DNA of 64,000 nt from a virus. Position numbers and translations under genes: made by a program. The notes below the pieces were generated by a model. That model saw only the letters and a list, made by a program, of their open reading frames with translations. It was not told the DNA's origin and searched no databases. The DNA is taken from IMG/VR virus record IMGVR_UViG_3300017778_004456, positions 11,996-75,995 of that record; one strand, given 5' to 3'. Shown piece by piece: positions 9,790-56,542 of this stretch; position 1 is the first letter of the stretch, and each line of letters starts with the position of its first letter.

Positions 9790-9861
9790 GTTGCGTGACG
9801 CCGTGCCTGCTTTATTACTAGGCGGGCCGCACTGGCAATAACGAAATCGGAGTAACGACTA

Positions 9862-10704
9862 ATGTCTGAAGATACAAAGAACGATCTGACTGTCACCAAG
9901 TTCGGCTCGCAGGACGTGGCGATCTTTAACGACGAGGACTTCGGCGCTGGCTTCCAGGAGATGGACAGCTCGCACACTATTGTCCCGATCCTGAAGATCA
10001 TCCAGGCCCTCTCGCCGCAGCTCCAGAAGTCCAAACCGCAGTACGTCAAGGAAGCCAAGTCCGGCATGTTCGTCATCTCGTCAACCAACGAGGTTCTCGA
10101 CGGCGAAGAAGTCGGCGCGACGGTGATCCCGGTCTACTTCTCGACCAAGTTCATCGAGTGGCGTCCGCGTGCGGCTGGCGGCGGCATCGCTGCTCGCTAC
10201 AAGTCTCAAGCTGAGTTCGACCGGATTCCCGGCACGATGAAGCGCGAGGACAAGGCGGGTTGGATCACCAAGGACGGCAACGAGATCATCGAGTACTATG
10301 ATTTCTTCGCCTTCCTTCTGAAGGACGGTGTGTTCTCGCCGATCCTTCTCTCCTTCAAGGGCAGCGCAATCCGGACCGCCAAGGTCTGGAACTCGCAGCT
10401 CAAAGGTCAGACCCAGAATGTCGGCGGCAAGCTCCGTCAGCTTCCCATGTTCTCCTACAGCTGGACTCTCCGCACTCAGGAGCAATCCAACTCGCAGGGA
10501 TCGTGGCACGGTCTGGTGATGTCTCGCGACAAATACATCGGCGAGATTGAGAACGGTGCTGCCATCGTTGCTGAGGCCCGTCTGCTTGTGGCGAACATCG
10601 TCGCCGGCACGGTTCGCGGCGCCGAGGAAAGCGAGGAGGACGGCGACGTTGCTGGTCCTGCTGGCGGCAAAGTCGGTGCGACTGGTAGCGACACCCTGAG
10701 CTAA
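9862..10704 (+). CDS. Putative single-stranded DNA-binding / annealing protein
   Basis: PILKIIQALSPQ, FIEWRPR and SNSQGSW motifs, acidic C-terminal tail, replication context. Confidence 0.6.
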   Translation: MSEDTKNDLTVTKFGSQDVAIFNDEDFGAGFQEMDSSHTIVPILKIIQALSPQLQKSKPQYVKEAKSGMFVISSTNEVLDGEEVGATVIPVYFSTKFIEWRPRAAGGGIAARYKSQAEFDRIPGTMKREDKAGWITKDGNEIIEYYDFFAFLLKDGVFSPILLSFKGSAIRTAKVWNSQLKGQTQNVGGKLRQLPMFSYSWTLRTQEQSNSQGSWHGLVMSRDKYIGEIENGAAIVAEARLLVANIVAGTVRGAEESEEDGDVAGPAGGKVGATGSDTLS

Positions 10705-10783
10705 GAACGATAGATAAGTTCGCCCTTGCGTGCGAGGGCGAACTTGTTACTATGTGTGCATGGTCAGCAAAAAGGAGTATCCA

Positions 10784-11419
10784 ATGACCGACGTGACTGA
10801 AACCACCGCCGACGAAGCCAAGCCCCAGAAGCTCGAGAAAGCCAATCAGAAGTTCTACCTTGGGACCGCCGCCTGCCGCAAGGGCAAGATCTACGACGCT
10901 CTCCGCGCTTTTGTCTTCGCGAACCCCGGCATGACGCGCGCCGAACTCATCGCCTCCGCCGACTTGAAGGTCGCTATGGGCGGAACGCGCAACCCAGACG
11001 CTCGCAAGCAGGCGATCGTCAATGATGCCTACGTCAACGGCTATCTCTCCGGCGGACTGCGTCGCAACTTCCTCACCGACAAGGCTGACGAAGCTGCTAC
11101 GGAGATCACGTTCATCGAGACCGGCAAGGCTGTCTCCGACAAGGTCGGCGCCGGCGAACTGACGAAATCCGGCCGCGAGTTCCTGAACATGGTCGCCGGC
11201 ATCCTGACGGAAGCAGGCGTCGCTGCTGATCACCCGGTCAGCGCCGAGACGCTCGAGAAGAAGCTGGGCCGTCCTCTGGCTCTGTCGGCTCGCACGATCT
11301 CGAAGCTGGAAGCTGACGGCTACCTCGACGTCGAGCGTGCCAAGGACGACAAGGGCGAAACGACCAAGAAGATCCTCTCGGTCAGCATCCTGAAATCGGC
11401 GCCAGTCGACGGCGAGTAA
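10784..11419 (+). CDS. Putative DNA-binding protein (winged-helix-like)
   Basis: Own promoter-like sequence, strong AAGGAG RBS and own terminator; C-terminal VSAETLEKKLG...ISKLEADGYLDVER resembles a wHTH. Confidence 0.55.
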   Translation: MTDVTETTADEAKPQKLEKANQKFYLGTAACRKGKIYDALRAFVFANPGMTRAELIASADLKVAMGGTRNPDARKQAIVNDAYVNGYLSGGLRRNFLTDKADEAATEITFIETGKAVSDKVGAGELTKSGREFLNMVAGILTEAGVAADHPVSAETLEKKLGRPLALSARTISKLEADGYLDVERAKDDKGETTKKILSVSILKSAPVDGE

Positions 11420-11445
11420 TCGCCTAACTACCTCCACCCGCGACG

Positions 11446-11472
11446 ACGGGCGACCTTCGGGTCGCCCGTTTG
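11446..11472 (+). terminator. Intrinsic terminator-like hairpin
   Basis: acgggcgacc-TTCG-ggtcgcccgt followed by a short T run. Confidence 0.75.
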
Positions 11473-11485
11473 CAGGACGACTTCA

Positions 11486-12361
11486 ATGGAAATTGTACCG
11501 GATCAGTTTGATCGCCTCGTGGCGTATATGCACGAGCGCGAACGAATTAGGATAAGGAAAGAGGCTGGACAGCCCTTCCCGTGGTCTCAGGACATAATCT
11601 TTCAATCCGCCCGCTTCACGAACATCCGTAGATCTGATGATAAGACCACGAGATGGCTTAAGAACAACTGGATCACGCCGAACAAGGGCAAGGATCCTCT
11701 CGCAGAGTTTCGGAACGTAGCGATCTTCCGCTGGGTTGGAACCATCGAGTTCGCCCAGACTTACGGATGGCAACCTCACTGGAGCAAGTCTCGACTGATC
11801 GCTGTCATCGAGGGTATGATGGCTCAGAAGCGAAGACCGTTCACATCTGCGTATGTCATCTCTAACTTCGGCCTGAAGGGCTCGAAGGCGGCAGTAGTCG
11901 GAAACGTGATCGACGAGCTGAACAACAAGCTGGAAGCTCTGATCGTACACGTCGACGAGCACCAGACATGGGAGTCAGCCGATACGTTCCTGCGTGACAA
12001 TGTCTCAGGATTCGGCGGTACGGGCTTCATGTCCAAGGAAGTTCTAACAGATGCTATGGAGACCTCGTTCTTCGGACCTGTGACTGATCTGTTCACCTGG
12101 AGTCCTTTCGGACCCGGCGCTCGCCGTGGTCTGGTGAGAGCGTTCGGTCAGCCTCTGGAGAAGAAGATAAACGCAGATGTTGCACTGAGGCTGGGAAGGG
12201 CGTTATATTCTGCCTTAAGTCACGGCGTACTAGATGCTGATATGCCTCAGCCCTACAAAGATTTCACTCTTCACGATCTTCAGTTCGTGATGTGTGAGTT
12301 TGACAAGTACGAACGTATCCGCCTGGGACAAGGCCGCTCGAAAAGGGGTTACTCGCAATGA
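11486..12361 (+). CDS. aGPT-PPlase clade 1 / amino acid:DNA transferase family (thymine hypermodification)
   Basis: ERERIR...PWSQDIIFQSARFTNIRRSDDKTT, GFGGTGFMSKEVLTD, GPGARRGL and CEFDKYER motifs; adjacent to a thymidylate synthase homolog. Confidence 0.85.
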   Translation: MEIVPDQFDRLVAYMHERERIRIRKEAGQPFPWSQDIIFQSARFTNIRRSDDKTTRWLKNNWITPNKGKDPLAEFRNVAIFRWVGTIEFAQTYGWQPHWSKSRLIAVIEGMMAQKRRPFTSAYVISNFGLKGSKAAVVGNVIDELNNKLEALIVHVDEHQTWESADTFLRDNVSGFGGTGFMSKEVLTDAMETSFFGPVTDLFTWSPFGPGARRGLVRAFGQPLEKKINADVALRLGRALYSALSHGVLDADMPQPYKDFTLHDLQFVMCEFDKYERIRLGQGRSKRGYSQ

Positions 12362-13212
12362 ACGACATCACGGTCTTCATTCCGACCAAGGGTCGACTGG
12401 ACAAGCAGTACACCTACGACATCGTCAAAGCGACCGGGAATCACTTGCCGATTCTGGTCTGCCCTCCGGAAGAGGTTCCGGAGCACGAGAAGCGTGGTCG
12501 TCGAGCCGTTGGCTTCGCTCACGCGTACCTGAGTCAGTCGATCGACCACATCATTCACTTCCTGGCACACACGGATCGTGTGATCATCATGGATGACGAC
12601 CTGAGGTTCTCCAGGCGTATCAGCAAGGACGACTGGAAGCTTCGGATGGCAGACCCAACCGATATTCGGGACATGATCGATCAGATCGCCGACCTGCTGA
12701 CTGAACATCCTATGGTGGGTGTGTCTGCTCGCCAGAACAACAACAATCTCACCGCCGATCACCATACGATAGCGATGCGTCAGTCCCAAGTTCATGGGAT
12801 CTACGTTCCGTTCTTCAAGGAGCATGGGATCCATCCAGACAACGTCATTCTGAAGAGCGATTTCTTCATGACGCTGAATGTCCTGACACGAGGTAAGTCG
12901 AACGCCGTCCTGACGCAGTTCACCGTTGATCAGGCTGGCGGTTCCAACGCGCCGGGTGGAGTCAGCATCTATCGCTCGGTCGATTCGATGAACAAGGCGG
13001 CGATCCTTCTCCAGAACCTCTTCCCACAGTTCGTGAAACTCCGGGAGAAAACTACGAAGTGGAAGGGTCTCGAGACCTCCTTCATGGATGTGACTATATT
13101 CTGGAAGAAGGCTCTGGAGGCGGGACAACGCGGAGGTTGCCCGATGCCTGCCGAACCTGTATATTCCGATGAACAGCCAGCCCCACAGCAAGACCGGAGA
13201 GCCGCCATATGA
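12358..13212 (+). CDS. GT-A fold DNA-base glycosyltransferase (TET/JBP-associated, TAGT-like)
   Basis: VFIPTKGR start, IIMDDDL metal-binding motif, KSDFFMTL and SNAPGGVSIYR; translationally coupled inside the modification cluster. Confidence 0.8.
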   Translation: MNDITVFIPTKGRLDKQYTYDIVKATGNHLPILVCPPEEVPEHEKRGRRAVGFAHAYLSQSIDHIIHFLAHTDRVIIMDDDLRFSRRISKDDWKLRMADPTDIRDMIDQIADLLTEHPMVGVSARQNNNNLTADHHTIAMRQSQVHGIYVPFFKEHGIHPDNVILKSDFFMTLNVLTRGKSNAVLTQFTVDQAGGSNAPGGVSIYRSVDSMNKAAILLQNLFPQFVKLREKTTKWKGLETSFMDVTIFWKKALEAGQRGGCPMPAEPVYSDEQPAPQQDRRAAI

Positions 13213-14267
13213 CGAGAGTGATTTCTTCAGAGAAAGGCGGTATCGGTACTATCGTCGCTACTGATGTCGATTCTGCAATCGTTTCAGCAGTGAAGCTTCT
13301 GAAGGAGGAAGGTCTCGAGATCGCCAGCCGCGCGGGTCCGACTTTGGAGTATCCGACCCCAGTCGTTACGATCTATAAGAATCCTTCCCGCAAGGTCAGC
13401 TTCATGGAGGCACGGGATGCAAACCCATTCTTCCACCTGTTCGAGTCGCTCTGGATGCTGGGCGGCGGAGACGATCTCCCTTCACTCCTGATCTTCAACT
13501 CAAAGTTTGGACAGTTCTCAGATGACGGCAAGACTATTCGGGGTTCAGCATACGGTCGTCGCTGGCGAACATGGTTCGGTCACGATCAGCTCACGGACGC
13601 TGTCCAGAAGCTCAAGAACACGCCTGGAGACCGCCGAGTGGTTCTTCAGATGTGGGATGCTTTCTCTGATCCTGTGGTGCAGTCGAAAGATGTCCCCTGC
13701 AACACCGTCTGCTACTTCCGATGCCGAGATGGTAAGACATTGGACCTCACAGTCTCCAACAGAAGCAACGATGCTATCTATGGAGCCCTCGGAAGCAACG
13801 TCGTACACTTCAGTCTTCTGCTTGAATACGTGGCTTCGTCAGCAGGTCTTGAAGTCGGCACGTACTATCAATTCTCTAACTCCTACCACGGATACGTGGA
13901 GAATCCTATCTTCGCCAAACTTCTCTCTGGCTCTACAGCTCCTGCGACGTATGAGAAGATGGGTGTCCAAGCCTTCCCGCTGAACTCTGAGGACGGCGCG
14001 ATCAACGAGGACATCATGCTTCTTATGAAGTTCGTCAGAGAAGTTGCGGAGTCTCCTGACAAGAATTACATCACCCTGATGACTTCTCTGAATGAGCGGG
14101 TCTGGAACACCGAGTTCTTCCGCAAGGTGGTTGGCCCGATGATGATCGCCTACTTCTCCTGGAAGACCAGCGGCGGCATCAAGTGGGCGCAGAAGAACTT
14201 CAACATGACGATTGACTGGCACAATGCCTCGATGCGATGGCTCGAACGGAGAATGAAAAATGGCTGA
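13209..14267 (+). CDS. Thymidylate synthase homolog, probable dUMP hydroxymethylase
   Basis: ANPFFHLFESLWML, AYGRRWR, RRVVLQMWD, catalytic DVPCN and NRSNDAIYGALGSNVVHF (Asn at the dUMP-specificity position). Confidence 0.85.
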   Translation: MTRVISSEKGGIGTIVATDVDSAIVSAVKLLKEEGLEIASRAGPTLEYPTPVVTIYKNPSRKVSFMEARDANPFFHLFESLWMLGGGDDLPSLLIFNSKFGQFSDDGKTIRGSAYGRRWRTWFGHDQLTDAVQKLKNTPGDRRVVLQMWDAFSDPVVQSKDVPCNTVCYFRCRDGKTLDLTVSNRSNDAIYGALGSNVVHFSLLLEYVASSAGLEVGTYYQFSNSYHGYVENPIFAKLLSGSTAPATYEKMGVQAFPLNSEDGAINEDIMLLMKFVREVAESPDKNYITLMTSLNERVWNTEFFRKVVGPMMIAYFSWKTSGGIKWAQKNFNMTIDWHNASMRWLERRMKNG

Positions 14268-14871
14268 TGGCTCGCCGGACTACGGCATTCCGCTGACAGC
14301 CTCTGAGCTCTGGCTCAGCGGCAAGGTGATTCGCTACCATGCTTCCCCCACGATTAAGCATCAGACCACGGGCGAACACGCATGGGGCGTCGCCATCATG
14401 TGCAAGATTCTGTTCCCGGAGAAGTTCGCACAGCTCGTGGAATATCTCTTAACGCACGACGCGCCGGAGCTGGTCCTGGGAGACTGGCCTTATCCCGCCA
14501 AGAAGTTGATGAACGTCTACGAGCGTGAGGCTGAATGCGAAGCGGCGCTGATGTCTCCGTGGCAGAAGCCTCCGGGCTTCATGTCCGAGGAGGACGCGAT
14601 CATCTTCAAGGTCTGCGACATCGTCGAGCTGCTGATGCAGACGGCATACGAGATTGGCCTCGGAAACAATCACGTCGGCTATATTCATCGCAACGGTGAG
14701 CGTGTCCTGATGTCCCTTCTGATCAAATTGGAGGAGACGTCGAAGGGTGCTTATCGCGCGACGGCGGTCCACGCTAAGGTGAAGGATGTTGTCAGCCGGA
14801 TCATAAAAGATCAGGTTGAGCGCTATCTGCCTTCCCAGCCTAAGATGCAAGTTACCGAACAGGAGTCCTAA
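14260..14871 (+). CDS. HD-domain 5'-deoxynucleotidase-like protein
   Basis: RYH...QTTGEHAWGV...THDAPE...GDWPYPAK...KVCDIVE (YfbR-like pattern). Confidence 0.8.
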   Translation: MADGSPDYGIPLTASELWLSGKVIRYHASPTIKHQTTGEHAWGVAIMCKILFPEKFAQLVEYLLTHDAPELVLGDWPYPAKKLMNVYEREAECEAALMSPWQKPPGFMSEEDAIIFKVCDIVELLMQTAYEIGLGNNHVGYIHRNGERVLMSLLIKLEETSKGAYRATAVHAKVKDVVSRIIKDQVERYLPSQPKMQVTEQES

Positions 14872-15275: not shown

Positions 15276-15379
15276 CGCCGGGGTCACCACATAAAGAAAC
15301 TGCGTTGAGCAGCGCGCCGGGGTAAGTTACAGCTTACCCCGGCGTTGACAATGCGTAACCTCGCACATACAGGATTTAC

Positions 15380-17317
15380 ATGTCCGATCTTATCTCCAGG
15401 CTGATGGGCTGGTTCGCAGGGACCGTTACCGCGATCGACTTGGAGACCTACGACCCTCTCCTTGAGGAGCGTGGTCCGGGTTGGGCATTCGAGAACGCTG
15501 GTCACATCATTGGTGTCAGTCTCGCCTCCGAGAAGAAGGCGGTCTACTTGCCGATTCGGCACAAGTGCTGGGAGGCAACTCCCGGTGACTACCCGCACCA
15601 GAATGATCTCGACGACAAGCCCTTCACTGAGAACTATGATCCCGAAGAGGTCATGGAGTTCCTTCGCCGCCTGATGGTTGAGAGCGAGGAGCCTGTGATT
15701 TTCGCCAACGCGAACTACGATCTGGGCTGGCTCGAGACTGAGGGCAAGGTCTGGGAGCATCGCCGGCGCGTCGAAGATGTTCAGATGCAGGCTCCGCTGC
15801 TGGACGAACACTCCAGAAGCTTCGGCCTGGATATGCTGGGCCTCAAGTATTCCGAGAAGGGTCTTACGAAGCTGGGCGGCGATCTTGTCTCGCTGGGCAA
15901 GTCCCGCGGATACAGGTCCAAGGGCGCGGTGATGAAGTCTCTTGCCGAGTTGCCGATTGGTGTGGTCGCAGCCTACGCGGTTCGGGATGCCGAGGTTACT
16001 CTCGACGTCTGGTATACTCTGACTAAGATGATCGAGCAGCAGAACCTACAGCGCGTCTACAGCGAGCTGGAGATGCCTCTGCTTCCGTATCTGCGACAGG
16101 CTCGACGCCGTGGGATTCGGGTCGACATGGCTCGCGCTGAGGAGGTTGCCCATCAGTTCCTGAAGCTTGAGGAAGAGGCAACCGCAAAGCTCAAGCACGA
16201 GACCGGGATCGACCTCACCGGAGACCTCTGGAAAGCCGAGAAGGTCGCCAAGGTTCTGGATTACGCAGGGATCCCATACCCTCTGACTCCCAAGACCAAG
16301 AAACCTTCCATCGACAAGGACTTCCTGAACGACATCGACAACCCGATCACCGACATGATTCTTCAGGCGCGCAAGTTCGAGAGAGCTCGCAGCACCTTCG
16401 TCGAGGGCTTCGTGATGAACGGCTCGATCAACGGCCGGATTCACTGTCAGCTTAACTCCCTGAAGTCTGACGATGGTGGTACTATCTCTGGACGCTTCTC
16501 CTGCTCCGACCCCAACCTTCAGCAGATCCCTGCACGCGACCCTGAGATTGGTCCGCTTGTCCGGAGCTGTTTCCTGGGCGACGAGGAATGCGACTGGGTG
16601 TCCATGGACTACTCTCAGCAGGAACCGCGTTGGATGGTGGAGATGGCTCTTCGCTGCGGGTTCACATCTTCGCTGCCGTTCGTGGAAGCTTATCAGAACA
16701 ACCCCAAGACAGACTTCCACCAGCTTAACGCTGACATCGCCGGCATCAAACGGAAGGAGGCCAAGGAGATTGGTCTGGGTCTCGCGTATGCGATGGGTGG
16801 CGGCAAACTCGCCCGGAAGCTGGGTCTGGAAATTGAACTCAAGACTTTCCGTGATCGGCGTACTGGCGAGATGGTCGAGTACGAGGCGGCGGGTAAGGAA
16901 GCCCAAGCTATCATTGACAAGTTTCACCGGGGCTCGCCATACATCAACGACCTCGACAAGATGTGCCGCGGTCAGGTTCGCTCGAAGGGTTATCTGCGGA
17001 CACCGCTCGGTCGACGATTCAGGTTCCCGATTCTACCTACCGGCGAGCAGTGGAAACCTCACAAGGCGATGAACGCTCTTATCCAAGGTTCTGCCGCTGA
17101 CGAGACAAAGACCGCCATGCTGGCCCTTTACAGAGCAGGCATCCCGCCTATACTTAGTGTTCACGACGAGGTAGCACTGACGCACACTCGAGATCGTGAA
17201 GTTATCCGGGCGGCTGCGAACATTATGATCAACGCTGTTCCGAAAACTGTGCCGTCCATGGTCGACATTGAAGTCGGCAGGTCGTGGGGCGAATGTGTCG
17301 CATTGGAGACAGAGTGA
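15380..17317 (+). CDS. polA: Family A DNA polymerase with 3'-5' exonuclease
   Basis: Exo motifs DLET, NANYD, YAVRD; SGRFSCSDPNLQQIP; motif A DYSQQEPR; motif B RKEAKEIGLGLAY; motif C VHDE. Confidence 0.95.
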   Translation: MSDLISRLMGWFAGTVTAIDLETYDPLLEERGPGWAFENAGHIIGVSLASEKKAVYLPIRHKCWEATPGDYPHQNDLDDKPFTENYDPEEVMEFLRRLMVESEEPVIFANANYDLGWLETEGKVWEHRRRVEDVQMQAPLLDEHSRSFGLDMLGLKYSEKGLTKLGGDLVSLGKSRGYRSKGAVMKSLAELPIGVVAAYAVRDAEVTLDVWYTLTKMIEQQNLQRVYSELEMPLLPYLRQARRRGIRVDMARAEEVAHQFLKLEEEATAKLKHETGIDLTGDLWKAEKVAKVLDYAGIPYPLTPKTKKPSIDKDFLNDIDNPITDMILQARKFERARSTFVEGFVMNGSINGRIHCQLNSLKSDDGGTISGRFSCSDPNLQQIPARDPEIGPLVRSCFLGDEECDWVSMDYSQQEPRWMVEMALRCGFTSSLPFVEAYQNNPKTDFHQLNADIAGIKRKEAKEIGLGLAYAMGGGKLARKLGLEIELKTFRDRRTGEMVEYEAAGKEAQAIIDKFHRGSPYINDLDKMCRGQVRSKGYLRTPLGRRFRFPILPTGEQWKPHKAMNALIQGSAADETKTAMLALYRAGIPPILSVHDEVALTHTRDREVIRAAANIMINAVPKTVPSMVDIEVGRSWGECVALETE

Positions 17318-17787
17318 GATATTTCGGAATTAAGTGGGACGCAAGATTCCTACAGCTCGCACAGATTGTTTCGACGTGGTCCAAAGACCCAAGCACGAAA
17401 GTCGGCGCCGTTCTGGTGCGTCCTGACAAGACCATTGCGGCGACCGGTTACAACGGATTCCCAATGGGCTGTTCGGACTCAGACGCGATGTATGAGGATC
17501 GTGACGAGAAGCTGGGCCGTGTGGTTCACGCTGAACTCAACTGCTGCCTCGCGGCTAACGAGAACTGTACCGGATACACAATCTACATTTATCCGCCGTC
17601 TGCGTTCAAGACTGCGACGTGTGATCGCTGCGCTGCGGCGATCATTCAACGTAAGATTCACAGAGTGGTTTCCTACTACGACATCAACGCAGTCTTCAAG
17701 GAATCCTGGAGACCCTCGTTCGATCGGTCTCTCAGGATGTACCAGGAAGCCGGTGTCCTTGTGGATGCCATTCCGCTGCTGCCCTAA
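17284..17787 (+). CDS. dCMP deaminase
   Basis: SKDPSTKVGA, GYNGFP, HAE and CDRC zinc motifs; exact start uncertain. Confidence 0.9.
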   Translation: MGRMCRIGDRVRYFGIKWDARFLQLAQIVSTWSKDPSTKVGAVLVRPDKTIAATGYNGFPMGCSDSDAMYEDRDEKLGRVVHAELNCCLAANENCTGYTIYIYPPSAFKTATCDRCAAAIIQRKIHRVVSYYDINAVFKESWRPSFDRSLRMYQEAGVLVDAIPLLP

Positions 17788-17812
17788 CCTGCACCCCGCA
17801 AAGGATACGCCC

Positions 17813-26049: not shown

Positions 26050-26143
26050 GCAAAAGGAAGCCCGCCTAGCGGGTTTCGCTGGCGGGCCGGTAGGTGGGTG
26101 GCTTGGGTTATTTCCGCTTACCAGCGGGCGTCCTAGGCGTCTG

Positions 26144-47427: not shown

Positions 47428-48877
47428 GTCGGCCAGGACGACAGGTAACTAGACGGAGGCGGACTGGGTGCAAGCTCAGTCCGCCTCTGACGAGAGGCTC
47501 TTAAGGAGTCTTAAGAATCCCAGATTATGGAGAAGAGAATGAGCGAAGCAAGTCGAGAACTATTGAGCGAAACCTTGATGACGGCTGGGATAGACGGAAA
47601 CACCGAGTGGTTCTACCCTCTGGTAACCGCCATCTCGACGGACCTAGAGACAGGCGAGGACCTGGAATCCCCGGAGCAGACTCCGATGATCACGGTCGAC
47701 CTAACGAGGGAGCACCTGGACTGGATTGTCAGGAATGTCGCAGTCCAATGGGAGGGCCGAGACCCACAGAGTCTGTGGGTCGGGGAGAGTGAGCTGTTCG
47801 TTCGGGAGACTCTGTGGTCGAAGCGATTCGCCTACGTCGTGCTCCAGGACGTGAAGGGCGGATTCATCTGCTGGGTCTGGCAGAGCGACCGAGCCGGAGT
47901 CTTAAGAATCGCCAGCCCTCACCTGTCTGTTCCAGCGGGAGTCCTGGAGAGTGAGTCGATTCGAGTTCTGGAGCTTCTCCAGTCCCGGGCCAACTCCTGA
48001 CCACACTGGCGACACAGCGTAGGGGCGCACTCCAGGGCGGGTAGGCTGGGCCAGCACACCCGCCCTGGATGCTGCGTAGAGTAAGCGTAGGCTTGCCTGA
48101 CGAGGTTCACGCGCGTACCTTGTAGGGGCTGGCAACGGGCCAGCGTCAGGTTATGGAGACAGAAGTGACCGTTGAAGAACTAGGAATCCAGGTTGACAAG
48201 ATGAAGGTGAAAGCCTTCGACCTGATGAAGAACTCCGAGCACGTGAATCCTCAGCACGCCGGGTACGAGACCTACGCCGACCTCTGTGCGGCGACAGTCA
48301 AGGCGACCCAGAAGGTGATCATCAAGTTGATCACCGACTGGGAACGCAAGAACCCGATGGAGGACTAGATGAGCAATTTATCATGGATGAAGCAATCACA
48401 ACTCGGGCTGTTCGAGCTATCACTCGCACAGCTCGGACTCGAAATGATGCCGATCGACGAGGACGAGAGCGAGGCATACTACGAGACGATCTACAAGTGT
48501 CGTCAGTTAGTCAACAGGTGCCGACCGAGTCTGTCACTCATGCTCCGAGTCGGCGTCGAGGTATCGTATGTTGATGTCTGGCGAATGCAGATCGAGGAGA
48601 GCGACGAGTATCTCGTGCGATTCTGGACGAGCAAAGGCCCGGATTTTGACGAGGCCGAGTTCCACCTAGCGCAGGAGATTGCTGAGTGATCTACGCAGTC
48701 TACGACCGAGCGGAACGGAGGACTCTCGCCAAGAAATCCGACCGGAAGGAGGATCTCAAAGGGCTGAGAGACAACCTGGAGAGACTCCACGCGACGATGG
48801 ACGTTCCACGAGACCGGGACGGCATTCCTCTGGACGAGAATAGACGCAGGTTTGTTATCCGGCCGATGCAGTAACAC

Positions 48878-48906
48878 TTGCCAGACGACCCGGCTTGGCG
48901 CATATT
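48878..48906 (+). promoter_or_regulatory. sigma70-like promoter
   Basis: TTGCCA-17-CATATT with GCTTG in the spacer. Confidence 0.6.
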
Positions 48907-49678
48907 GCATGTACGCGCTGGGTGACCCGGTTCTTACCGGACAATCTGCCCAGTTGGCCTGATCTCGGGCCATCATGCAAGCCTCAAACCAGAGGCAGAG
49001 GTCTGAGTCGGGGCAGTCATCCCCGACACTCATGGAGTACCTGAAGTGAGAAATCATTGGAACAACTGGGGCCGGGAGATCACCGGCTGGGGATTGATCC
49101 TGGTCATCGTGTGCACGGGATCGTGGTTCGGAGCCGAGGTTGGCGCGAACTACATCCGCGCGCTGATCGACGGCGGACAGTGGGGGAAATAGTCATGTTG
49201 AGCAAAGAACTCAAGCACAAGATCCGCAGAGCGTGGGCTCGCAAAGCCTGGGAGGACGGTCCCACGGACACTCTGGCCCTCAAGCAGGAGATCCGCGACC
49301 TGATGGATGTCCTGGCTGTGGACGGGAAGGTCGGCCTCGTCATCTGGCAGATGGACTGCGATTGTGCGTCCTGGACCAGCCTGATGGTGATCGAGAACTC
49401 GCTGGTTGACTACAACCGGGCGATCACCGGCGTCTACTCCAATGCGGAGGGACCGGTCCGGATCCACTTGGCGAGCCCAGACACCGAGGTCCAGCGCAAC
49501 GAGCGGGACCACGCTCTGGAGGCCCACGAAGACGGACACCCCTACTCCGTCTCGTACTGAGATTAGAGCGGCGAGGAGACAGCTTCTCGCCGCTCTGGTC
49601 TATAGGTCAGTCTGGGACTCTTAAGAATCGCAGAGGACTCTTAAGAATCGCGGTGTGGTCTGTGGGATGCTAAGATGC

Positions 49679-49707
49679 TTGCATGACGCGCGTGCTTGTG
49701 GCATGTT
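49679..49707 (+). promoter_or_regulatory. sigma70-like promoter
   Basis: TTGCAT-17-CATGTT with GCTTG in the spacer. Confidence 0.6.
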
Positions 49708-50297
49708 GCAAGTACGCCGCAGTTGGCGTGTCAAGGGACCTATCCACATGATAAGTCGCATCCGCATAATCACTCCCGAGGGCCGAGTCCACGTGGTTGA
49801 TCAGAGCTGGTCTCAGCTCTGCCAGACGATCCGTCCTCTCTCAGACGAGGACAAGAAGGAGTTCTGGAACAAGAAGTCCATGCCTCTGCCCGAGGGCGGA
49901 AGCGTGAAGCTGGTCCTGGAGGGCGTGTGATGTACGACATGATTCACACGTTCAACACCGGCCGGAAATACACGGTCCACGGTCAGCGCATCATCGCGAA
50001 GTCTCGTACTGATGGACGAGGTCCGATCCTGTTCAACGATCTGGACCGCATGATCTACGGTTCTCTGGACCGAGAACCTCCGGAGGGATGGGCAAGTCTC
50101 ACCGAGAAGGAGCGTCAGAGCTACATCCTGCACGAGTACGACTGCGGATACTACCGCTGGCACCAGGATGCTGACGCCCTGAGGAAAGAGTGGCAGTAGA
50201 TCTCACCGGCGAGGAGATGACTTCTCGCCGGTTGGGTCTATTCGTCTGTCTGGGACTCTTAAGAATCGCAGCGAGTATGTTGGGATGCTACCTACCC

Positions 50298-50326
50298 TTG
50301 CATGATACGCGTGCTTGGCGTACCTT
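50298..50326 (+). promoter_or_regulatory. sigma70-like promoter
   Basis: TTGCAT-17-TACCTT; near copy of the 49679 promoter. Confidence 0.55.
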
Positions 50327-50767
50327 GTAAGGGTAGGTAGCAAAGGAGAATCTACATGGGATTTCAATCAGGCGCGAAACATCAGCGATCCGCGGTCCGA
50401 GCAGCTCTGGAGGACCTGATGAAGGTCAACTGTGCCAGACTCGCCGAGGACCAGGACTTCCCTGAGCGGGAGCTCTTCGAGAACAGCGACCAGGACAACG
50501 AAGGCTGGGAGAAAGTCATCGACATCCAAGTCGAGTGGGAGACGGCCCGGATCTGGGAGCACTCTGAAGACAACAGACTCATTGTCGTCCTGTCTGACGG
50601 CGGAAACGAGGATGATTACGAGGTTTGGGAAGTAGCCTAGACAACGGGGAACGGAGGCAAGACAGATAGGGAGCGGAGGCGAGACAAGGCCTCCGCTTCC
50701 GCTCAACTTGGATGCAAGGACTCTTAAGAATCACAGCATGGTCATTTTGACCACATGATACTTGCAA

Positions 50768-50795
50768 TTGACAGCCTGACCGGCTATGGTATAGT
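50768..50795 (+). promoter_or_regulatory. sigma70-like promoter
   Basis: TTGACA-16-TATAGT. Confidence 0.6.
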
Positions 50796-51819
50796 GTGGC
50801 TGGGGTCGTCCCAGAGTCCACAGTGCAAGATGGAGCTGAAGTCTATGCTGAACATTATGACTCTTGAGCGTCCTGTGATCCAGGGCCCCTCAGGTGCTGA
50901 GACCCCGAGAATCGCTGAGGAAGCCCAGTCCACGGACTATGACTGGCTTCCACGGTGTTCCACGCCGATCCGCGTGGTTCCGCGGATGCCCAAAACGATC
51001 CGCACCATCGGATACGCTTCCAGGCAATACGAGGTTTCCGCAGGCGTGGAAGAAATCGTGAAGAAGGCCGGAGGGATGTGGACCTACATGAACGGAAAGT
51101 ACTTCCCGAGCAAGGGCCGCACGAAGCAGAACGAGGCGAACCTGGTCAAGGCCGGTCTCATCGCGGTGTGTAGCGACCGGAGCAAAAAGGTGGTGTTGAT
51201 GCTCGAAAAAGAGCTCAAGACGCTGCTCGGGTAGTGGTCATTTAACTATCAGGCGTGTAAGCTGGGGCAGGCAAGGCGTTGGTCTTGTCTGCCCTTACGC
51301 ATGGAGAGAACGAAGTGCAAATGGATATCGATGAACTGGTCGGTGCTGACCCGAACACTTGGCGTCTAGCCGACCGGAATCTGGCACGTGAGGTCAAGTT
51401 TCCGGAAGTGGGAGTGGTATTCCTGTCTGGTAAGCCGGGTGCGAAACTGGTTCCACGGGAGTGTAAGTCGCTGAAGCCGATGGGTGCTTCGGCTATGCGG
51501 CACGGAAACCTGACGTGCTGCTACGTTGAGTACGAGGAACTGAGGGATGGGATGTGGTATCGTCACATTCATGGGCATTGGGCGACCTTGGATGGTCACC
51601 GTGTCCGTCAGTGTTGGTTAGTCGCCGCGAAGTAGCGGAGGGTAATCCCGACCCGGTCAGTGAATGCTGACCGGGTCTCCCCGGCCGAAAGATGTTGACT
51701 CTTAAGAGTCTGGCCTAGATCTCCCCCGCGGAGAGATGATCAGTCTTAAGAGTCCACGGCAGACTCTTAAGATTCCCCGGGTCTCCCTCGCGGCGATTTG
51801 GATTCCTGGATGCCCTACC

Positions 51820-51897
51820 CGGCACGGTACGTACCGTTTTACCTAGGCGGCACGGTACGTACCGTTTTACCTAGGCGGCACGGTACGTACCGTGCCG
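51820..51897. repeat. 28-bp tandem repeat x2 plus a third partial copy forming a perfect 22-bp palindrome
   Basis: CGGCACGGTACGTACCGTTTTACCTAGG at 51820 and 51848; CGGCACGGTACGTACCGTGCCG at 51876-51897. Confidence 0.95.
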
Positions 51898-52052
51898 TAT
51901 GGGCTACCCTAGGGGCAACCTGCCTGCGGCATAATGCCGCACCCCGGTTCCGTGGCATGGTTTGTGGCAATGCATGTACCGTGCCAAGCGCCGCCCGCCT
52001 ACCTGCGGCATATAGCCGCACCCTTTGGGGCGTTTTTGTTGCTTGGGGCTAG

Positions 52053-52081
52053 TTGCAATTGGCAATGGCTTGGGCCATGTT
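52053..52081 (+). promoter_or_regulatory. sigma70-like promoter of the GA/TC-free gene
   Basis: TTGCAA-17-CATGTT with GCTTG in the spacer, same pattern as 48878 and 49679. Confidence 0.6.
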
Positions 52082-52127
52082 GCTTGTGCGGCGCAATTGC
52101 CGCGTTACCCAAGTAAAGGCCACCACT

Positions 52128-52601
52128 ATGCAAAAGCAAACCAAAGCCCCCGCCACCGCCGCTGCAACGCCCGCCGTTGCGCCTGCAACGCCCGTACAGG
52201 CGCTTACGCCGCGCCCCGTGCGGGTTGCCGCCCACGCTGGCATTGCCGCCGCAGCGGGCAAGCTGGCCGCAGGCACGGCTAGCCCCACTGTACCGCGCGG
52301 TTGCCCTGCTACTGTGTACCTTACCGCCCAAGGCATTGCCTTGGGCGCGCCGGGTGCAGCCGGTAGCGGCCTAGCGTGGGCGCTGGCGCAATGCGCCTAC
52401 GCTACCGCACAAGCAACGGGCGGCAATGTGCCCCAAGCTGGCCACGCTGTTAATAGCGCCATGCTTGCCGCCGCGCTTGTGCGGGCGGGCATTACGCCGG
52501 GCTACCTTACCGGTAGCTACGTTGCAGGTAGCGCCAAGCACGCCAAGGGCCAAACCAATAAGCAACGCTTGGCCGTGCTGGCCTATGCCGCGCCCACCTA
52601 G
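52128..52601 (+). CDS. 157-aa Ala-rich basic protein with no Asp or Glu, encoded without any GA or TC dinucleotide
   Basis: ATG 52128 after AAAGG, TAG stop, flanked by a promoter and a terminator. Confidence 0.7.
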   Translation: MQKQTKAPATAAATPAVAPATPVQALTPRPVRVAAHAGIAAAAGKLAAGTASPTVPRGCPATVYLTAQGIALGAPGAAGSGLAWALAQCAYATAQATGGNVPQAGHAVNSAMLAAALVRAGITPGYLTGSYVAGSAKHAKGQTNKQRLAVLAYAAPT

Positions 52602-52625
52602 GGCGGCAACGTAAGGCAAGCATAG

Positions 52626-52658
52626 GCGCCCCGGCAGCAATGCCGGGGCGCTTTGCTT
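52626..52658 (+). terminator. Intrinsic terminator
   Basis: gcgccccggca-GCAA-tgccggggcgc then tttgctt; lies at the convergence of + and - gene blocks. Confidence 0.75.
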
Positions 52659-52753
52659 GGCGCTTGTTGGTATGCCCATGGTACCTGTAGGGGTATTGCC
52701 CCGGTTTTTTACGTGGCCGCACCTAGTGCATCAGTCAATTTTCTATTGATCAC

Positions 52754-53129
52754 TTAGGGATGCGAAAGGGGACCCGGCTGCTCGACAGTAGAACTGGAGC
52801 TTCGGATTTCGACTTTGGAAATTTCACCGTGGAATAGAGATCGCCGTGACGTAATCGCCGCCGAGCCCACGTAGAGCACTAGTCCCGCCAGAACTACGAC
52901 GAAGAACCAAGCGAACACATTATCCTTCTGACGATTGAACATCTTGAGTCCCCAGCCACTCACATGGAACCGTGCTGATACCCTTCTGGAGATCTCGCCA
53001 CTTCCGAGCGTCATCCAAATCCTTCTGACGAATCGTCCCCAAACCTATAACGATCGCCGCTACCAAAAAGACACACGCAACCGTCGTAAGCATCTCCCGC
53101 GCTTCCCGCTGACGCTCTCTCATGCACAC
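52754..53129 (-). other. Two small membrane proteins (52754-~52942, 52920-53129)
   Basis: Each has one hydrophobic helix (FAWFFVVVLAGLVLYVG; VACVFLVAAIVIGLG). Confidence 0.5.
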
Positions 53130-53686
53130 TCCTCATTCTCCATCCTGAACCTCAACCCTGCCGGAATCGTCCCGCTCAACTCCGGAATAGTCACGCTTCT
53201 ATATTCCTTCGTCACGAATCCCGGATACACGTCGTTGCAAACCTCGAAGATCTTCCCAACGTCTCCCCACAGACCAGCCCGATACAAAGCATCCGCTTCC
53301 CTCGCCGCGCAGCCCACGAACCACCCGATCTTCCGACCCACTTCGACGATATAAGGCATCTCGAGCCAGTTGCGACCGAACTCCTGGACGATCAGCTTAT
53401 CGCCGATTCGCGAACAGACCACTCCCTCCAGAGTCCCGTTGCTCTCTGGATGTCCCTCCACGGGAGTCTTCAGGTCGTCGTAGTGACTCTTGGGAGTCAT
53501 CTTTCGAAGATTTTTGAGAGCCCAGTCTCCCAGGCCGCAGTCTCCTCCGTAGGTGTAGATTCTTCCGCCACCCGCGTCGTAGAACTTCTGTGGACGAGCG
53601 CCGTGCTGAGCTTGATGTGTGCCAATCGTCAGGGATTGGTCGGCGTAGACCCTCCCGTCGAACCCGCTGACGAATGCCAATGTCAT
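53120..53686 (-). CDS. Possible Ntn-hydrolase (HslV/proteasome-subunit-like) protein
   Basis: N-terminal MT...DGRVYADQ, GGD and VGCAAREADAL pattern; divergent. Confidence 0.45.
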   Translation of the reverse strand: MTLAFVSGFDGRVYADQSLTIGTHQAQHGARPQKFYDAGGGRIYTYGGDCGLGDWALKNLRKMTPKSHYDDLKTPVEGHPESNGTLEGVVCSRIGDKLIVQEFGRNWLEMPYIVEVGRKIGWFVGCAAREADALYRAGLWGDVGKIFEVCNDVYPGFVTKEYRSVTIPELSGTIPAGLRFRMENEECA

Positions 53687-54111
53687 CTGGAAGTCCTCAC
53701 GCCTCTAGCTTCCCTCATCTCCAAGGAATCGTCGGAGGAGGGCTCGGTCTCTTGGTACTGGCGCAAGAAGTTCTCTCGATGGATCCTCCACTCGTCCTTT
53801 GCGGAGGTTATAGGCGTCCCTGCGACCCAGGATCCCCACTTGATCAGTGCCCGGATGCACGCCATGTCTTTCATCGATACCTCGCACGCGCCTGCTTTCA
53901 CGGCGAGTGCCCTCACTTCTAGCGATATGTCGTAGTGATCCTCTTGGAACCATTCGCGTTTGACTCCCAATTCGCGAGCAAATTGATGAAGTTCATGGTG
54001 AGAAGTGTCGCTTATCATGTGCGACATCTTCATGATGCGACCGCGGCGGCTGCGGAGCTGTCCGAGGCTGTAGCGATACATGTCATCTATCAGGATCATG
54101 GCGCTTCCCAA
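53683..54111 (-). CDS. DUF4031 protein
   Basis: MSHMISDT..ELHQFARELGVKREWFQ..HYDI...RALAVKAGA. Confidence 0.8.
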   Translation of the reverse strand: MGSAMILIDDMYRYSLGQLRSRRGRIMKMSHMISDTSHHELHQFARELGVKREWFQEDHYDISLEVRALAVKAGACEVSMKDMACIRALIKWGSWVAGTPITSAKDEWRIHRENFLRQYQETEPSSDDSLEMREARGVRTSR

Positions 54112-54849
54112 AGACAGTGACGTTGCTGAGATTCACAGCCTGAAGAGTCTCGTAATTCTTCGGATCATACTCGTGGACGACGTCGTCAACGACGAGAAAT
54201 GCCGGAAATTCGCTCTTCAGGCGGATAAATTGGTCGTACATCACCTCTCGCTCGAGCTCCATCGTCATTGGGACGATGGTCTCGACGAGTTTATCATTGA
54301 ATCTTTGGGTGAGTTTTCGGTGAAGTTCGTGGAGTTCTGTGACGTAATAACGTCGGCCACCGTCCTTATATTCGACTCGGTAAGAGACGATTTTGGTCAC
54401 GGCAGGGCCTCCTGGGGACGATTCTAGACTAACATTTCGCCCCCAGAAGGGCTATCCTACGTCGGTGAGCTCGGCATGGGGCCGGTGACGAACTTGACGT
54501 TGATGATTCGGTCGGGGACGCCTTGCTCGATGTTCATCGAGTCGGTGACTGTCGGAGGGACGAGATCGAGGATCTTGTGGCCGATTCCGTGAGCGAGGGT
54601 GGAGAGGGCGACCGGGGTCTGAACCTCGAGAATGTCTAGGCCGTCCTCTCCGGAGATGGTGACCTGGAGCTCGTAGGTGCGGAGGCTTTCGAGAATACGG
54701 ATCGCGTCGTTGATGTAGATAGCGCTGTCCTCGAATCCCTCCATGTTGATGAGATTGCTCGTGTACTTAAGCTCTACGATCAGGTCGGGTAGAGATGTCA
54801 TCATTCTTCTCCTGTATGCTGATGGCGTCCGTTGGGAAGGGTTTTCCAC
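54083..54849 (-). other. Two hypothetical genes (54083-54400, 54457-~54804)
   Basis: Co-oriented ORFs with RBS motifs. Confidence 0.55.
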
Positions 54850-55223
54850 TTGCGGGCGCGGTTGATCTTCATCTTGTCTTCGACGGCCTTGTGGAAGTCT
54901 CCTCCGAGTTTCTCCATGACCTGCATCAGGATGATAGCAACGTCGGCCACTTCTTCGATGGCAGCTTTCCGGAGTTCTGCTTCTTCGTGATAATTCTCGG
55001 AATTTCGGAGACTGTTCAGGATCGTGCCGAGCTCACAGAACTCGTTGTTGCAGCGCATCCAGGTCGTAATCGGGCTGCTACCGCCGAACTGCTCGACGGC
55101 CCAATCGGTGATCGTCTTCTGGTTCTCGAGAGGAGCTTTGGGAGCTTCTGGATGGTCGCCAACTCGAGGCCAGTCCATCCTTTCGAAGTCGCGGTCGTCA
55201 TGAGTCTTTCTAGTGAAGGCCAT
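54801..55223 (-). CDS. MazG-like nucleotide pyrophosphohydrolase
   Basis: NEFCEL...EEVADV and KMKINRARKW. Confidence 0.8.
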   Translation of the reverse strand: MAFTRKTHDDRDFERMDWPRVGDHPEAPKAPLENQKTITDWAVEQFGGSSPITTWMRCNNEFCELGTILNSLRNSENYHEEAELRKAAIEEVADVAIILMQVMEKLGGDFHKAVEDKMKINRARKWKTLPNGRHQHTGEE

Positions 55224-55309
55224 TTTCTTTCCTTACATGCGGATTGTGCGTAACCAAGGAGCACCGGCCCACTATACGCGGTCCGTATACGCCGAGCAAG
55301 CGTAAGCGG

Positions 55310-55558
55310 CTATTTCAAGCCTAGCATATCCTTAATCGTAGTCAGCTTCGTAAAGCGACCGTCGTAGAACTCGGATTTCGGGCGAACCCAGACAGTTCCG
55401 GAGTCAGACTCGTAGATGACGACTTCTTCGAAAGTTTTCTCGAGAAGAGCGGTCCGAATGAGTCGGTATTTGCCGCCAGTCTTATTGTGAATGTGCGTCG
55501 GCTCCCAGAACGACCATCGTAGGAACTTCTGGAATCCTGAGAGCCAACGCATCATCAT
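55310..55558 (-). CDS. DUF1653 protein
   Basis: HNKTGGKY...VVIYE...WVRPKSEFYDGRF. Confidence 0.75.
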   Translation of the reverse strand: MMMRWLSGFQKFLRWSFWEPTHIHNKTGGKYRLIRTALLEKTFEEVVIYESDSGTVWVRPKSEFYDGRFTKLTTIKDMLGLK

Positions 55559-55733
55559 CGTCTTAGACCTTCGGTTGGGGTTTCTTCCACAGCGGGAACG
55601 TTTTCACCGCTGTGACGGTTGCGGCCATCGAGTCCTGGAAAGCCTGCCAGAGACGCGTATACGGGCCGAGAACACCTTGGACGGTAACGATCATCCAAGG
55701 GTAGAGTGCTACAACGCGATCCATGAGATCACC

Positions 55734-56418
55734 TCACTTAGGACGGACGGGAAGTGTCCGGGCATCAATGTAAGGCGCAATTTTGCGAGAGGCAACGACG
55801 ACAATGGGTTGCCCCATCGTTGCGATGTCAATCTTGAGGTTCTCGTACATGTGATATACGACGTTCTGAGTCTCGGCGACCGAGAACGTCATTCGACGGA
55901 GGCCCTTGGGCATGTGAACGTTGAGGACGTCGAGGCGAGGAAGCTTGATCGCGCGATTGCCGTTCTCGTTGAAGGCTGTGTGGGCCTTGCTCATCGCAAC
56001 GTCCAGAGTCGCGCGGTTTGAGAAATAAATGATGACGTGGTTGTCGCGGAGATAGTTGGCGGCTTCCTGGAGAGGCTTGTCGGCCCAAACGAGCTCAATT
56101 GACACGATCAGATCCTTGCTGGAGTTTCATGGAGGTACGGATGTCCTCCTGAGTGGTGTCGACGTACTTGTCAACGGATACGGCGTCCAGGACTTGTAGG
56201 GCTACGACGGGATGTCCCTTGCCGTGAATCCAGAGGACGACGGTGCCGGACTTCTTGATCTCATTGATCTCTTGGTCGGACAGTTTCCAGAGGCTCTTAT
56301 GCCATCCGTCGGTGTGAATCGTGTGGAGAGTCTCGACAGAACTGCCTTGCCCCTCCCGATCCCAGTCTGCTGGTTCACCCATTTGGTGAGTCGGATTCAA
56401 GAGAGGACGGGGGACCAA
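55734..56418 (-). other. Two hypothetical genes (55734-56105, 56095-56418)
   Basis: Coupled ORFs; AGGAG RBS before TTG 56418. Confidence 0.55.
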
Positions 56419-56542
56419 GGTGTGCTCCTGTTTGCGAAGAATATAAGGTAACGCTACCGCCCCGCCCGAGCAAGTAGACAAATGTTGTGCGTCAGGCGTG
56501 CGTGCGCTAGGTATAAAGTGAACCATTCCGTACGGAGAGATC

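Follow-up and report, generated by a model that had tools for sequence, protein, structure and literature searches.

Islands lacking the GA/TC step in an uncultured freshwater phage with predicted thymine-modification genes

The IMG/VR virus record IMGVR_UViG_3300017778_004456 (75,995 b, CheckV completeness estimate 75%) derives from an uncultured freshwater phage. We analysed a window of 64,000 nucleotides, bases 11996-75995 of the record; all positions refer to this window, and those with a minus sign denote the part of the record ahead of it. GA and TC, which are the same step read on opposite strands, are the commonest dinucleotides of the window, together occupying 0.165 of its positions (observed/expected ratio, O/E, 1.33 for GA and 1.35 for TC). 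Nevertheless, this step is nearly absent from a set of discrete, mostly non-coding islands, the largest of which spans 922 bp and includes a whole gene for a protein without Asp and Glu. What we observed is the depletion, its specificity for GA/TC and the location of the islands, together with the enrichment of the step in coding sequences, the set of genes present and the fact that relatives keep the property. As an explanation, to which we give about an even chance of being right, we propose that the phage uses a TC-specific thymine hypermodification and that its regulatory DNA and one gene are kept free of it.

Islands depleted of GA and TC

An earlier note on this DNA had listed 16 patches as GA/TC-poor. 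All 16 are depleted, with 2-7 GA+TC against 9.1-23.9 expected at the window rate, and the patch at 34330-34420, described as having one TC, has by count 0 GA and 1 TC in 91 bp. The same 16 patches coincide with segments recovered independently by an unbiased log-likelihood scan. The scan covered the whole 75,995-b record and returned 36 segments, 27 of which have a score of at least 5 and are referred to here as islands. Absent from the earlier list were the largest island (51810-52731) and seven short ones (at 31815, 39883, 46727, 48888, 49686, 50285 and 58218).

The counts were compared with a codon-aware null, in which synonymous codons were resampled for the same proteins and non-coding DNA was shuffled locally (300 simulations). 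The 16 listed patches have z = -2.4 to -4.0, most with P<=1/300, values that refer to islands picked post hoc. In the large island, one GA/TC is observed, whereas the 300 simulations gave 93 on average and never fewer than 67. Its GA/TC-free runs of 140 bp and 782 bp have E=1e-7 and E=3e-58, respectively, by geometric expectation; no other dinucleotide pair in this genome gives a run below E=0.01. For the genome as a whole, the outcome depends on segment strength. There are 11 segments with a score of at least 8, exceeding both the codon-aware null (mean 4.5, largest 9) and a first-order Markov null (mean 0.2). By contrast, the 27 segments with a score of at least 5 do not exceed the codon-aware mean of 34.8. 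Since the low-threshold count is not above the null, weak islands carry weight only through their position. The island at -7647, in a tape-measure-like gene, is accounted for by the amino acids of its product (P=0.16, codon-aware null).

Non-coding blocks were also compared with their own local composition using a maximal-segment score. GA/TC gave p<=0.05 in 13 of the 50 blocks, where 2.5 are expected, and each of the other nine pairs did so in 1-6 of the 50. A minimum 60-bp-window statistic was tried and rejected: it picked out only 4 of the 50 blocks for GA/TC and, because it saturates at zero, overlooked even the large island.

Coding DNA has O/E of 1.38 for GA and 1.40 for TC. GA/TC reaches 1.103 of the synonymous-shuffle null (z=29-31), the largest positive deviation among ten pairs, and TC at the codon 3-1 junction has O/E 1.68-1.70. 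Coding DNA is enriched rather than depleted in GA/TC against the synonymous-codon null, and passive coding bias is excluded as the cause of depletion in the strong islands. Relative to the local mononucleotide expectation, GA/TC O/E falls to 0.24 in the short islands and to 0.01 in the large island. TG/CA is normal inside the islands (O/E 1.05-1.25), which makes the depletion specific to GA/TC. Richness of the patches in GC, TA and CTAG, also pointed out in the earlier note, is borne out by island O/E of 1.56-1.57 for GC/GC and 1.76-1.81 for TA and by 8.7 CTAG per kb versus 2.0 genome-wide. Such an excess follows arithmetically once GA and TC are forbidden.

Residual sites in 17 oriented short islands comprise 23 GA and 17 TC, and the sense strand of the open reading frame (ORF) at 52128-52601 in the large island contains neither dinucleotide. 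The purge is strand-symmetric, and therefore its reader presumably acts on the duplex step and not on RNA. Among the surviving sites of the 17 short islands, 20 of 40 are in CTC context, where 10.2 are expected; the large island lacks even CTC. This hints that a C ahead of TC may make a poorer target.

Location of the islands

Non-coding DNA makes up ~9% of the genome and holds, wholly or mainly, 21 of the 27 islands. The remaining six are inside genes, and most islands end 6-62 nt ahead of a start codon. One patch that the earlier note had placed inside an upstream coding sequence (27490-27620) does lie there, at the 3' end of gene 27438-27950 on the minus strand and 37 nt before the next start codon. 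The 34 residues encoded in the corresponding island, 27485-27589 (MRPLAC...GAARY), include no Asp and no Glu. The wider claim that the islands mark intergenic and promoter DNA holds only in part: the 21 non-coding islands and the overlap of several islands with a sigma-70-like motif agree with it, whereas pooled intergenic gaps and islands between convergent genes do not (see below).

The large island and its protein

The 5' part of the large island contains three 28-bp repeats with the palindrome ACGGTACGTACCGT (51814-51897). All three exact matches to this repeat in the window are in the large island, and up to three mismatches give 5 sites compared with 1.5 expected. Further downstream, a match to the promoter class described below (52053-52082) precedes the ORF 52128-52601, which is followed by two terminator-like hairpins (52641-52662 and 52690-52702), and the island ends at the end of a convergent minus-strand gene. 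Judged by these predicted elements, the large island is a complete transcription unit. It should be noted that openness of the frame proves little by itself, because TGA cannot occur in GA/TC-free DNA and long open frames are common there.

Six homologues of the encoded protein are known; the core is conserved (PRG-PAT-YLTA-G ... P-Y--G-Y--G--K), whereas the N-terminus varies. Asp and Glu are also missing from the four homologues with 88-95% identity and from another with 47-54%, and the most distant one (34-42% identity) has 4 Asp/Glu in 174 residues. The protein has no match in Pfam, PHROG or NCBIfam. An AlphaFold2 model based on 7 sequences had a mean predicted local distance difference test score (pLDDT) of 53.1, too poor to use.

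At the DNA level, the ORF and the homologues P0003 and P0004 were unmatched in viral contigs, and the ORF was unmatched in metagenome contigs. Three other studies provided contigs of relatives, with ~88-95% identity, that span this context. The comparison with these relatives (runs X2, X3, X6 and X7) was confined to the parts covered by contigs. One contig of run X3 bridges the right border of the large island, and one contig of run X7 joins the upstream gene to the ORF, its left part differing. Non-alignable letters inside the island amount to 131 nt, in which 0 GA/TC were counted by eye versus ~15-22 expected, while loose contig ends outside the island do contain GA/TC. Thus, the GA/TC-free property is kept in relatives even where the sequence is not.

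Thymine-modification genes

The protein encoded at 11486-12361 contains the PF18723 domain, found in proteins that accompany the kinase of the published pathway, and is a homologue of PaMx11 gp50, PhiJL001 gp19 and PhiW-14 gene 72; the PhiW-14 record notes the latter as similar to M6 ORF055 (M6 gp55). Its homologues in 90 phage records share 27-32% identity with it. The order of genes in this nucleotide block is PF18723, TAGT-like glycosyltransferase, thymidylate-synthase-like protein, HD protein, DUF3310, family-A DNA polymerase, dCMP deaminase and 5'-3' exonuclease. The thymidylate-synthase fold enzyme, dCMP deaminase and HD protein (the latter for the dTTP/dUTP-clearing hydrolase) make up the set for supply of 5-hydroxymethyldeoxyuridine triphosphate (5-hmdUTP), with the pathway as defined in PMC8989533. 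For the thymidylate-synthase-like enzyme, sequence does not distinguish 5-hydroxymethyldeoxyuridine monophosphate (hmdUMP) from dTMP as the product, and it is therefore a candidate hydroxymethylase; the syntenic gene of PhiJL001 is annotated as similar to the SPO1 hydroxymethylase. In the 76 kb of the record, the modification genes found belong to the 5-hydroxymethyluracil (hmU)/thymine route only. Their position next to the polymerase gene and their order, shared with PhiJL001 and PaMx11, we count in favour of a thymine hypermodification.

A tblastn search with PaMx11 gp49, the verified 5-hmdU DNA kinase (5-HMUDK), gave no match in 76 kb. The candidate AAA_33 kinase at 40705-41289 shares with gp49 only the Walker A motif, and the genes that flank it (39956-41988) have no Pfam match. 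Gene 9862-10704 is unrelated to PaMx11 gp46.

Promoter-like sites and other motifs

The pattern TTGCMW-N17-YAYNTTG occurs at 6 sites of the window, where 0.09 are expected; four of these served to derive the pattern and two are new. All five plus-strand sites (48093, 48878, 49679, 50298 and 52053) overlap islands. In this class the -35 element is TTGCAT or TTGCCA in place of the GA-containing TTGACA, and the GA/TC-free part extends from the spacer through the -10 element to the ribosome-binding site.

Exact GANTC-TTAA-GANTC palindromes are found at eight positions of the window (47506, 47897, 49616, 49636, 50254, 50719, 51697 and 51762). Most of these boxes are located 3' of a GC-rich hairpin without a T tract and 5' of a promoter-like island. 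GANTC alone is not enriched beyond GA/TC frequencies (399 observed versus ~435 expected), and neither is the sigma-54 consensus (48 sites versus 46.8). Copies of GAGCAAGCGTA with 0-1 mismatch (38929, 48079 and 55294) reside in three islands, inside small inverted repeats, and are one of the few places in islands where a GA is kept; with 2 mismatches, the motif is not enriched (16 versus 16.9 expected). We found no motif common to all islands.

Comparison with other phages and PF18723 loci

Neither GA/TC-free nor TG/CA-free islands were found in PaMx11, PhiJL001, PhiW-14 (first 100 kb), phiKMV or lambda. Relative to the synonymous null, GA/TC is 1.035 in PaMx11, 1.030 in PhiJL001, 1.007 in PhiW-14 (first 100 kb), 0.993 in phiKMV and 0.966 in lambda, compared with 1.103 here. 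In PhiW-14 and PhiJL001 the pair with the largest excess is instead CA/TG (1.161 and 1.106, respectively), for which the two controls have 1.058 and 1.085. In PhiW-14 (positions 1-100000) CA/TG is 16% above the synonymous-codon null (z=45; genome O/E 1.33), the strongest value among the six genomes, and TG is one of two steps proposed as the target for putrescinyl-thymine in this phage. These figures, from six genomes only, would fit a target step that is favoured in bulk DNA, namely, TG in PhiW-14 and PhiJL001 and TC in the present phage.

We also surveyed 82 IMG/VR loci (1.2 Mb) with PF18723 homologues for non-repetitive depleted segments of four composition-neutral pairs. The controls of this survey were phiKMV and lambda only, with no matched loci without PF18723, and its complexity filter was relaxed since a stricter version removed the large island itself. 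The survey yielded seven GA/TC segments in six loci, one CA/TG segment and none for AC/GT or AG/CT. The GA/TC segments are 361 bp in locus L074, 335 and 166 bp in L080, 272 bp in L043 and 143 bp in L041, with further ones in L046 and L051; the four strongest are intergenic. Two additional GA/TC runs were left out as simple repeats in coding DNA. The segment of L041 (11190-11332) is an intergenic island with one GA/TC just after the PF18723 gene cluster, and codon-junction TC O/E in this locus is 2.54, which makes it the second genome with both traits.

Layout of the genome

No close relative of the phage was found in the phage collection by megablast or blastn; the only matches, of 63-65% identity, run across the ribonucleotide reductase gene. 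Our gene calls and family searches identified structural genes, lysis genes and a replication/nucleotide block, as in a tailed phage. A long run of small genes is on the minus strand, and a block of small plus-strand genes occupies ~46.6-52.6 kb (Table 1). No tRNA was found, and an Rfam search of 45000-54000 returned nothing beyond a terminator-like match below threshold (E=0.24).

The small-gene block varies by whole cassettes among strains, since in the relative from run X6 (compared over window positions 48134-48370) 34 other letters stand in place of the small gene 48153-48368, and other joints in contigs of relatives skip 49.7-50.7 kb. The adjacent minus-strand genes 42083-42454 and 42451-43161 are paralogues, both matching DUF6197. 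They contain DNA repeats D5 and D8, 74-76% identical and spaced by ~370 bp. Ten head-to-tail 66-nt units (63098-63991), 69-87% identical to a reference copy, lie within ORF 62066-64000, the last one, which continues past the end of the record and looks like a repeat-domain structural protein.

Table 1. GA/TC-poor islands, promoter-like matches and genes considered in this study
Feature	Position	Strand	Remarks
GA/TC-free, 0 in 46 bp, intergenic	9798-9843		19 nt before gene 9862-10704
PF18723 (HMUDK_hel) protein	11486-12361	+	E=2.2e-30, 274/281 profile positions
TAGT-like glycosyltransferase	12358-13212	+	PF20691 E=5e-8; phrog_842 E=1e-31
Thymidylate-synthase-like protein, candidate dUMP hydroxymethylase	13218-14267	+	PF00303 E=3e-18
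HD domain protein	14260-14871		
GA/TC-poor, with GC-rich hairpin	15308-15361		19 nt before DNA polymerase gene
dCMP deaminase	17314-17787		
GA/TC-poor, 5 vs 12.2 expected	17773-17911		covers dCMP deaminase stop and first codons of 5'-3' exonuclease gene
GA/TC-poor, 4 vs 15.7 expected	23498-23632		between terminase and ribonucleotide reductase genes
GA/TC-poor, terminator-type position	26003-26131		between convergent genes
GA/TC-poor, in coding sequence, 2 vs 10.9 expected from own protein	27485-27589	-	gene 27438-27950 (-)
GA/TC-poor	28182-28248		at start of gene 27947-28201 (-)
GA/TC-poor	31430-31493		between two minus-strand genes
GA/TC-free	31815-31849		divergent region ahead of primase-helicase-like gene 31855-34020
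GA/TC-poor, 4 vs 15.6 expected, longest short run 64 bp	34290-34420		between convergent genes
GA/TC-poor, retained motif GAGCAAGCGTA at 38929	38853-38987		
GA/TC-poor, with hairpin	39883-39939		
GA/TC-free	40409-40448		10 nt before minus-strand start 40399
AAA_33 P-loop kinase, candidate only	40705-41289	-	same broad Pfam family as PaMx11 5-HMUDK gp49
GA/TC-poor	45125-45190		48 nt before minus-strand start
GA/TC-poor, promoter-class match 48093-48122	48012-48146	+	match given as 7 nt before gene 48153
Promoter-class match TTGCCA-N17-CATATT	48878-48924	+	overlaps island 48888-48924
Promoter-class match TTGCAT-N17-CATGTT	49679-49731	+	overlaps island 49686-49731
Island with promoter-class match TTGCAT-N17-TACCTT (50298)	50285-50346	+	10 nt before gene 50356
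Short GA/TC-free	51250-51283		ahead of gene 51285-51635
GANTC-TTAA-GANTC boxes, two exact (51697, 51762) and near copy between	51697-51775		directly ahead of large island
Large island, 922 bp, 1 GA/TC	51810-52731	+	repeats, promoter-class match, ORF, two hairpins
Gene, 157-aa Ala-rich basic protein, no Asp/Glu	52128-52601	+	six homologues known
GA/TC-poor, GAGCAAGCGTA at 55294	55243-55329		20 nt before minus-strand start
GA/TC-poor	56440-56520		divergent region ahead of portal gene
GA/TC-poor	58218-58342		after portal gene

Possible explanations of the islands

According to the hypermodification that we propose, the phage would swap thymine for hmU during replication, drawing hmU from the nucleotide pool, and hmU in the step 5'-TC-3' (GA on the other strand) would then be turned into a bulkier, probably glycosylated, base. 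The bulky group in the major groove would hinder proteins that read or open DNA. Selection might then have stripped TC/GA from the spacer, -10 element and leader of host-type promoters, and also have cleared some hairpin/terminator regions and a few coding stretches with a second role as upstream regions. One whole transcription unit (51810-52731) would have been cleared too, its protein giving up Asp and Glu to comply, with TC/GA kept or even favoured elsewhere. The existence of the modification, TC as its context and its harm to transcription are the three parts of this scenario that we infer. In its fullest form, the genome would carry a sequence-encoded map of the places closed to its own hypermodification: bulk DNA would favour TC/GA, whereas promoters, leaders, some terminators and one gene would have lost it, the protein of that gene having evolved without Asp and Glu; this version we believe slightly more likely to fail than to hold.

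Several published observations make such a mechanism plausible by analogy. The accessible part of PMC8989533 states that 5-hmdU phages convert hmU "in sequence-specific contexts", with only part of the thymines affected. TG/TC was proposed as the target context in M6, ViI and PhiW-14 on the basis of restriction resistance (PMC6449724, in extract), and a phage thymine dioxygenase is described as preferring NTC (PMC13229309, in extract). Excerpts of two further papers concern transcription: bacterial RNA polymerases are blocked, probably when they initiate, by bulky groups in the major groove (PMC4838386), and phosphorylation by 5-HMUDK reduces the output of E. coli RNA polymerase to 10% of that on an hmU template (PMC6457204).

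A considerable number of results weigh against the proposed hypermodification or against a simple promoter rule. Neither the P-loop 5-hmdU DNA kinase (PF18748, HMUDK_HMUD1) nor the amino-acid:DNA transferase, clade-2 aGPT-Pplase (PF18724), had a match at E<=1 in the 76 kb of this record, estimated as 75% complete, so that no enzyme that would confer TC specificity was found. For the same reason, the designation "aGPT-PPlase phage" used in the earlier note is not supported as far as the characterised clade 2 is concerned. Three phages with a PF18723-type hmU module have no islands, hypermodification being on record for PaMx11 and PhiW-14 and the gene set only for PhiJL001, and the rule does not transfer to PaMx11, PhiJL001 and PhiW-14 (first 100 kb). 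In 53 loci, codon-junction TC excess did not correlate with island strength (rho=0.06, p=0.66). When 49 intergenic gaps are pooled, GA/TC is 1.03 of expectation, a ratio blurred by the gene calls, which are crude calls from codon usage with some starts uncertain and some small genes missed. Since the pooled gaps are not depleted, the islands are discrete elements and not a general property of non-coding DNA. Two islands (26003 and 34290) lie between convergent genes, a terminator- and not promoter-type position, which is at odds with a promoter rule. A generic sigma-70 promoter scan showed no enrichment (6 found versus 6.1 expected), the best sigma-70 match of the region, TTGACA-16-TATAGT at 50768, contains GA, and GA directly follows the -35 hexamer on its 3' side in four of the five plus-strand promoter-class matches. 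The GANTC-TTAA-GANTC boxes are rich in GA/TC, as are the hairpins that precede them, so that regulatory DNA is not uniformly purged. Finally, inhibition at initiation alone does not explain the purge of a whole gene and of terminators.

It is hardly credible that the depletion is a passive by-product, in which the GA/TC excess stems from coding (GAN codons, ATC/TTC/GTC), non-coding DNA merely does not have it, and inspection by eye singled out the lowest windows. The coding O/E values of GA and TC, the 34.8 segments of score at least 5 that the codon-aware null yields against 27 observed, the island at -7647 explained by amino-acid content and the pooled intergenic ratio would all be expected from it. 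However, the islands are far below local mononucleotide expectation, with a 782-bp run in the large one, the coding island at 27485 is below the expectation from its own protein, GA/TC alone among ten pairs behaves in this way, and the control phages lack such runs. The large island and the strong islands (score at least 8) refute a passive origin in their case, and it is possible for some islands of score 5-6. No modification would be involved if the islands were binding or structural DNA for an unknown protein or for a DNA shape that excludes GA/TC, for example an origin, a packaging site or a place where the basic protein of the large island nucleates. This protein belongs to no known family, the large island opens with three 28-bp palindromic repeats that have no exact copy elsewhere in the window, and GCTGGCA recurs at 16 sites versus 7.6 expected, seven of them in islands. 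We nonetheless consider such a site quite improbable: it would not need 922 bp, including a whole ORF, without one dinucleotide in every context, no single motif unites the islands, and the non-alignable sequence of relatives keeps the property, pointing to a compositional rule and not to a specific site.

DNA deaminases with TC preference exist, and the GA/TC step might be read by an outside enzyme, i.e. a DNA cytosine deaminase or nuclease of the host or a competitor with a preference for TC, acting on melted or first-entering DNA, with the most exposed stretches (open promoters, hairpins and one heavily used early gene) having lost its target. The purge of promoters and leaders, which are melted regions, and of one whole transcription unit would suit such an enzyme, as would the islands of PF18723 loci L074, L080 and L043, whose bulk DNA is not TC-enriched. 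We regard it as unlikely, because the enrichment of TC/GA in the rest of the genome would be odd if TC were a liability, and an enzyme attacking the displaced strand should leave asymmetric residual sites instead of the symmetric ones observed (23 GA, 17 TC). In addition, no candidate enzyme or host has been identified. The marked base might also be not thymine but a different base of the duplex step, e.g. guanine in GA bearing a motif-specific 7-deazaguanine, with the same regulatory consequence. GA on one strand is TC on the other and sequence alone cannot say which base is marked; in phage CAjan, GA is reportedly the modification motif. Yet TGT/DpdA (PF01702) had no match in 76 kb, although the control was matched in 14 of 14 genomes, no N6/N4 methyltransferase was found in the same 76 kb, and all modification genes found belong to the hmU/thymine route, which is not proof of absence as ~25% of the genome is missing. 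A mark on a different base therefore appears distinctly unlikely to us. Weighed together with the proposed thymine hypermodification, these results leave the interpretation given in the earlier note partly supported.

Relation to known systems and significance

The phage resembles the 5-hmdU hypermodification phages M6, PaMx11, ViI, PhiW-14 and SP10 in having hmU-supply genes and PF18723 beside a family-A polymerase, in the order seen in PaMx11 and PhiJL001. It differs from them in that PF18748 and PF18724 were not found and that, like PhiJL001, it has a TAGT-like glycosyltransferase instead. The targets proposed for those phages are TG/TC (PMC6449724, in extract), while here TC alone is implicated and not TG. 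The phage thymine dioxygenase system, as presented in the accessible part of PMC13229309, is similar in that T in NTC is marked and a TET-associated glycosyltransferase (TAGT) is the usual partner of the dioxygenase. That system makes hmU by oxidising T in DNA, whereas for the present phage we propose pool-derived hmU, and no Tet_JBP dioxygenase was found in 76 kb. The accessible parts of the literature on hypermodified phages contained no report of target-free islands.

Restriction-site avoidance in phages is genome-wide and aimed at host enzymes. The islands share with it a counter-selected short word, but in this phage bulk DNA favours the word and only local stretches are purged of it, presumably because of an enzyme of the phage itself. 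Vertebrate CpG islands are unmethylated; they keep the target and escape the enzyme. Both kinds of islands would distinguish promoters by modification state, except that those described here delete the target instead.

Partial, context-specific hypermodification of thymine is known, with target contexts only roughly defined and its cost to phage expression hardly studied. Should the proposed reading be wrong, a 922-bp stretch including a gene and practically free of GA/TC would point to another reader of this step. If it is true, the modification context of uncultured phages could be inferred from their sequence, and the islands would flag promoters and other DNA read by proteins in genomes that lack transcript data. 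They would also be evidence that a modification hinders transcription or DNA binding strongly enough to reshape the amino-acid content of a protein, and the purged gene would be one that needs to be expressed from, or bound as, ordinary DNA. Such a finding would have a bearing on the design of modified-DNA templates and on the timing of expression in phages of this kind.

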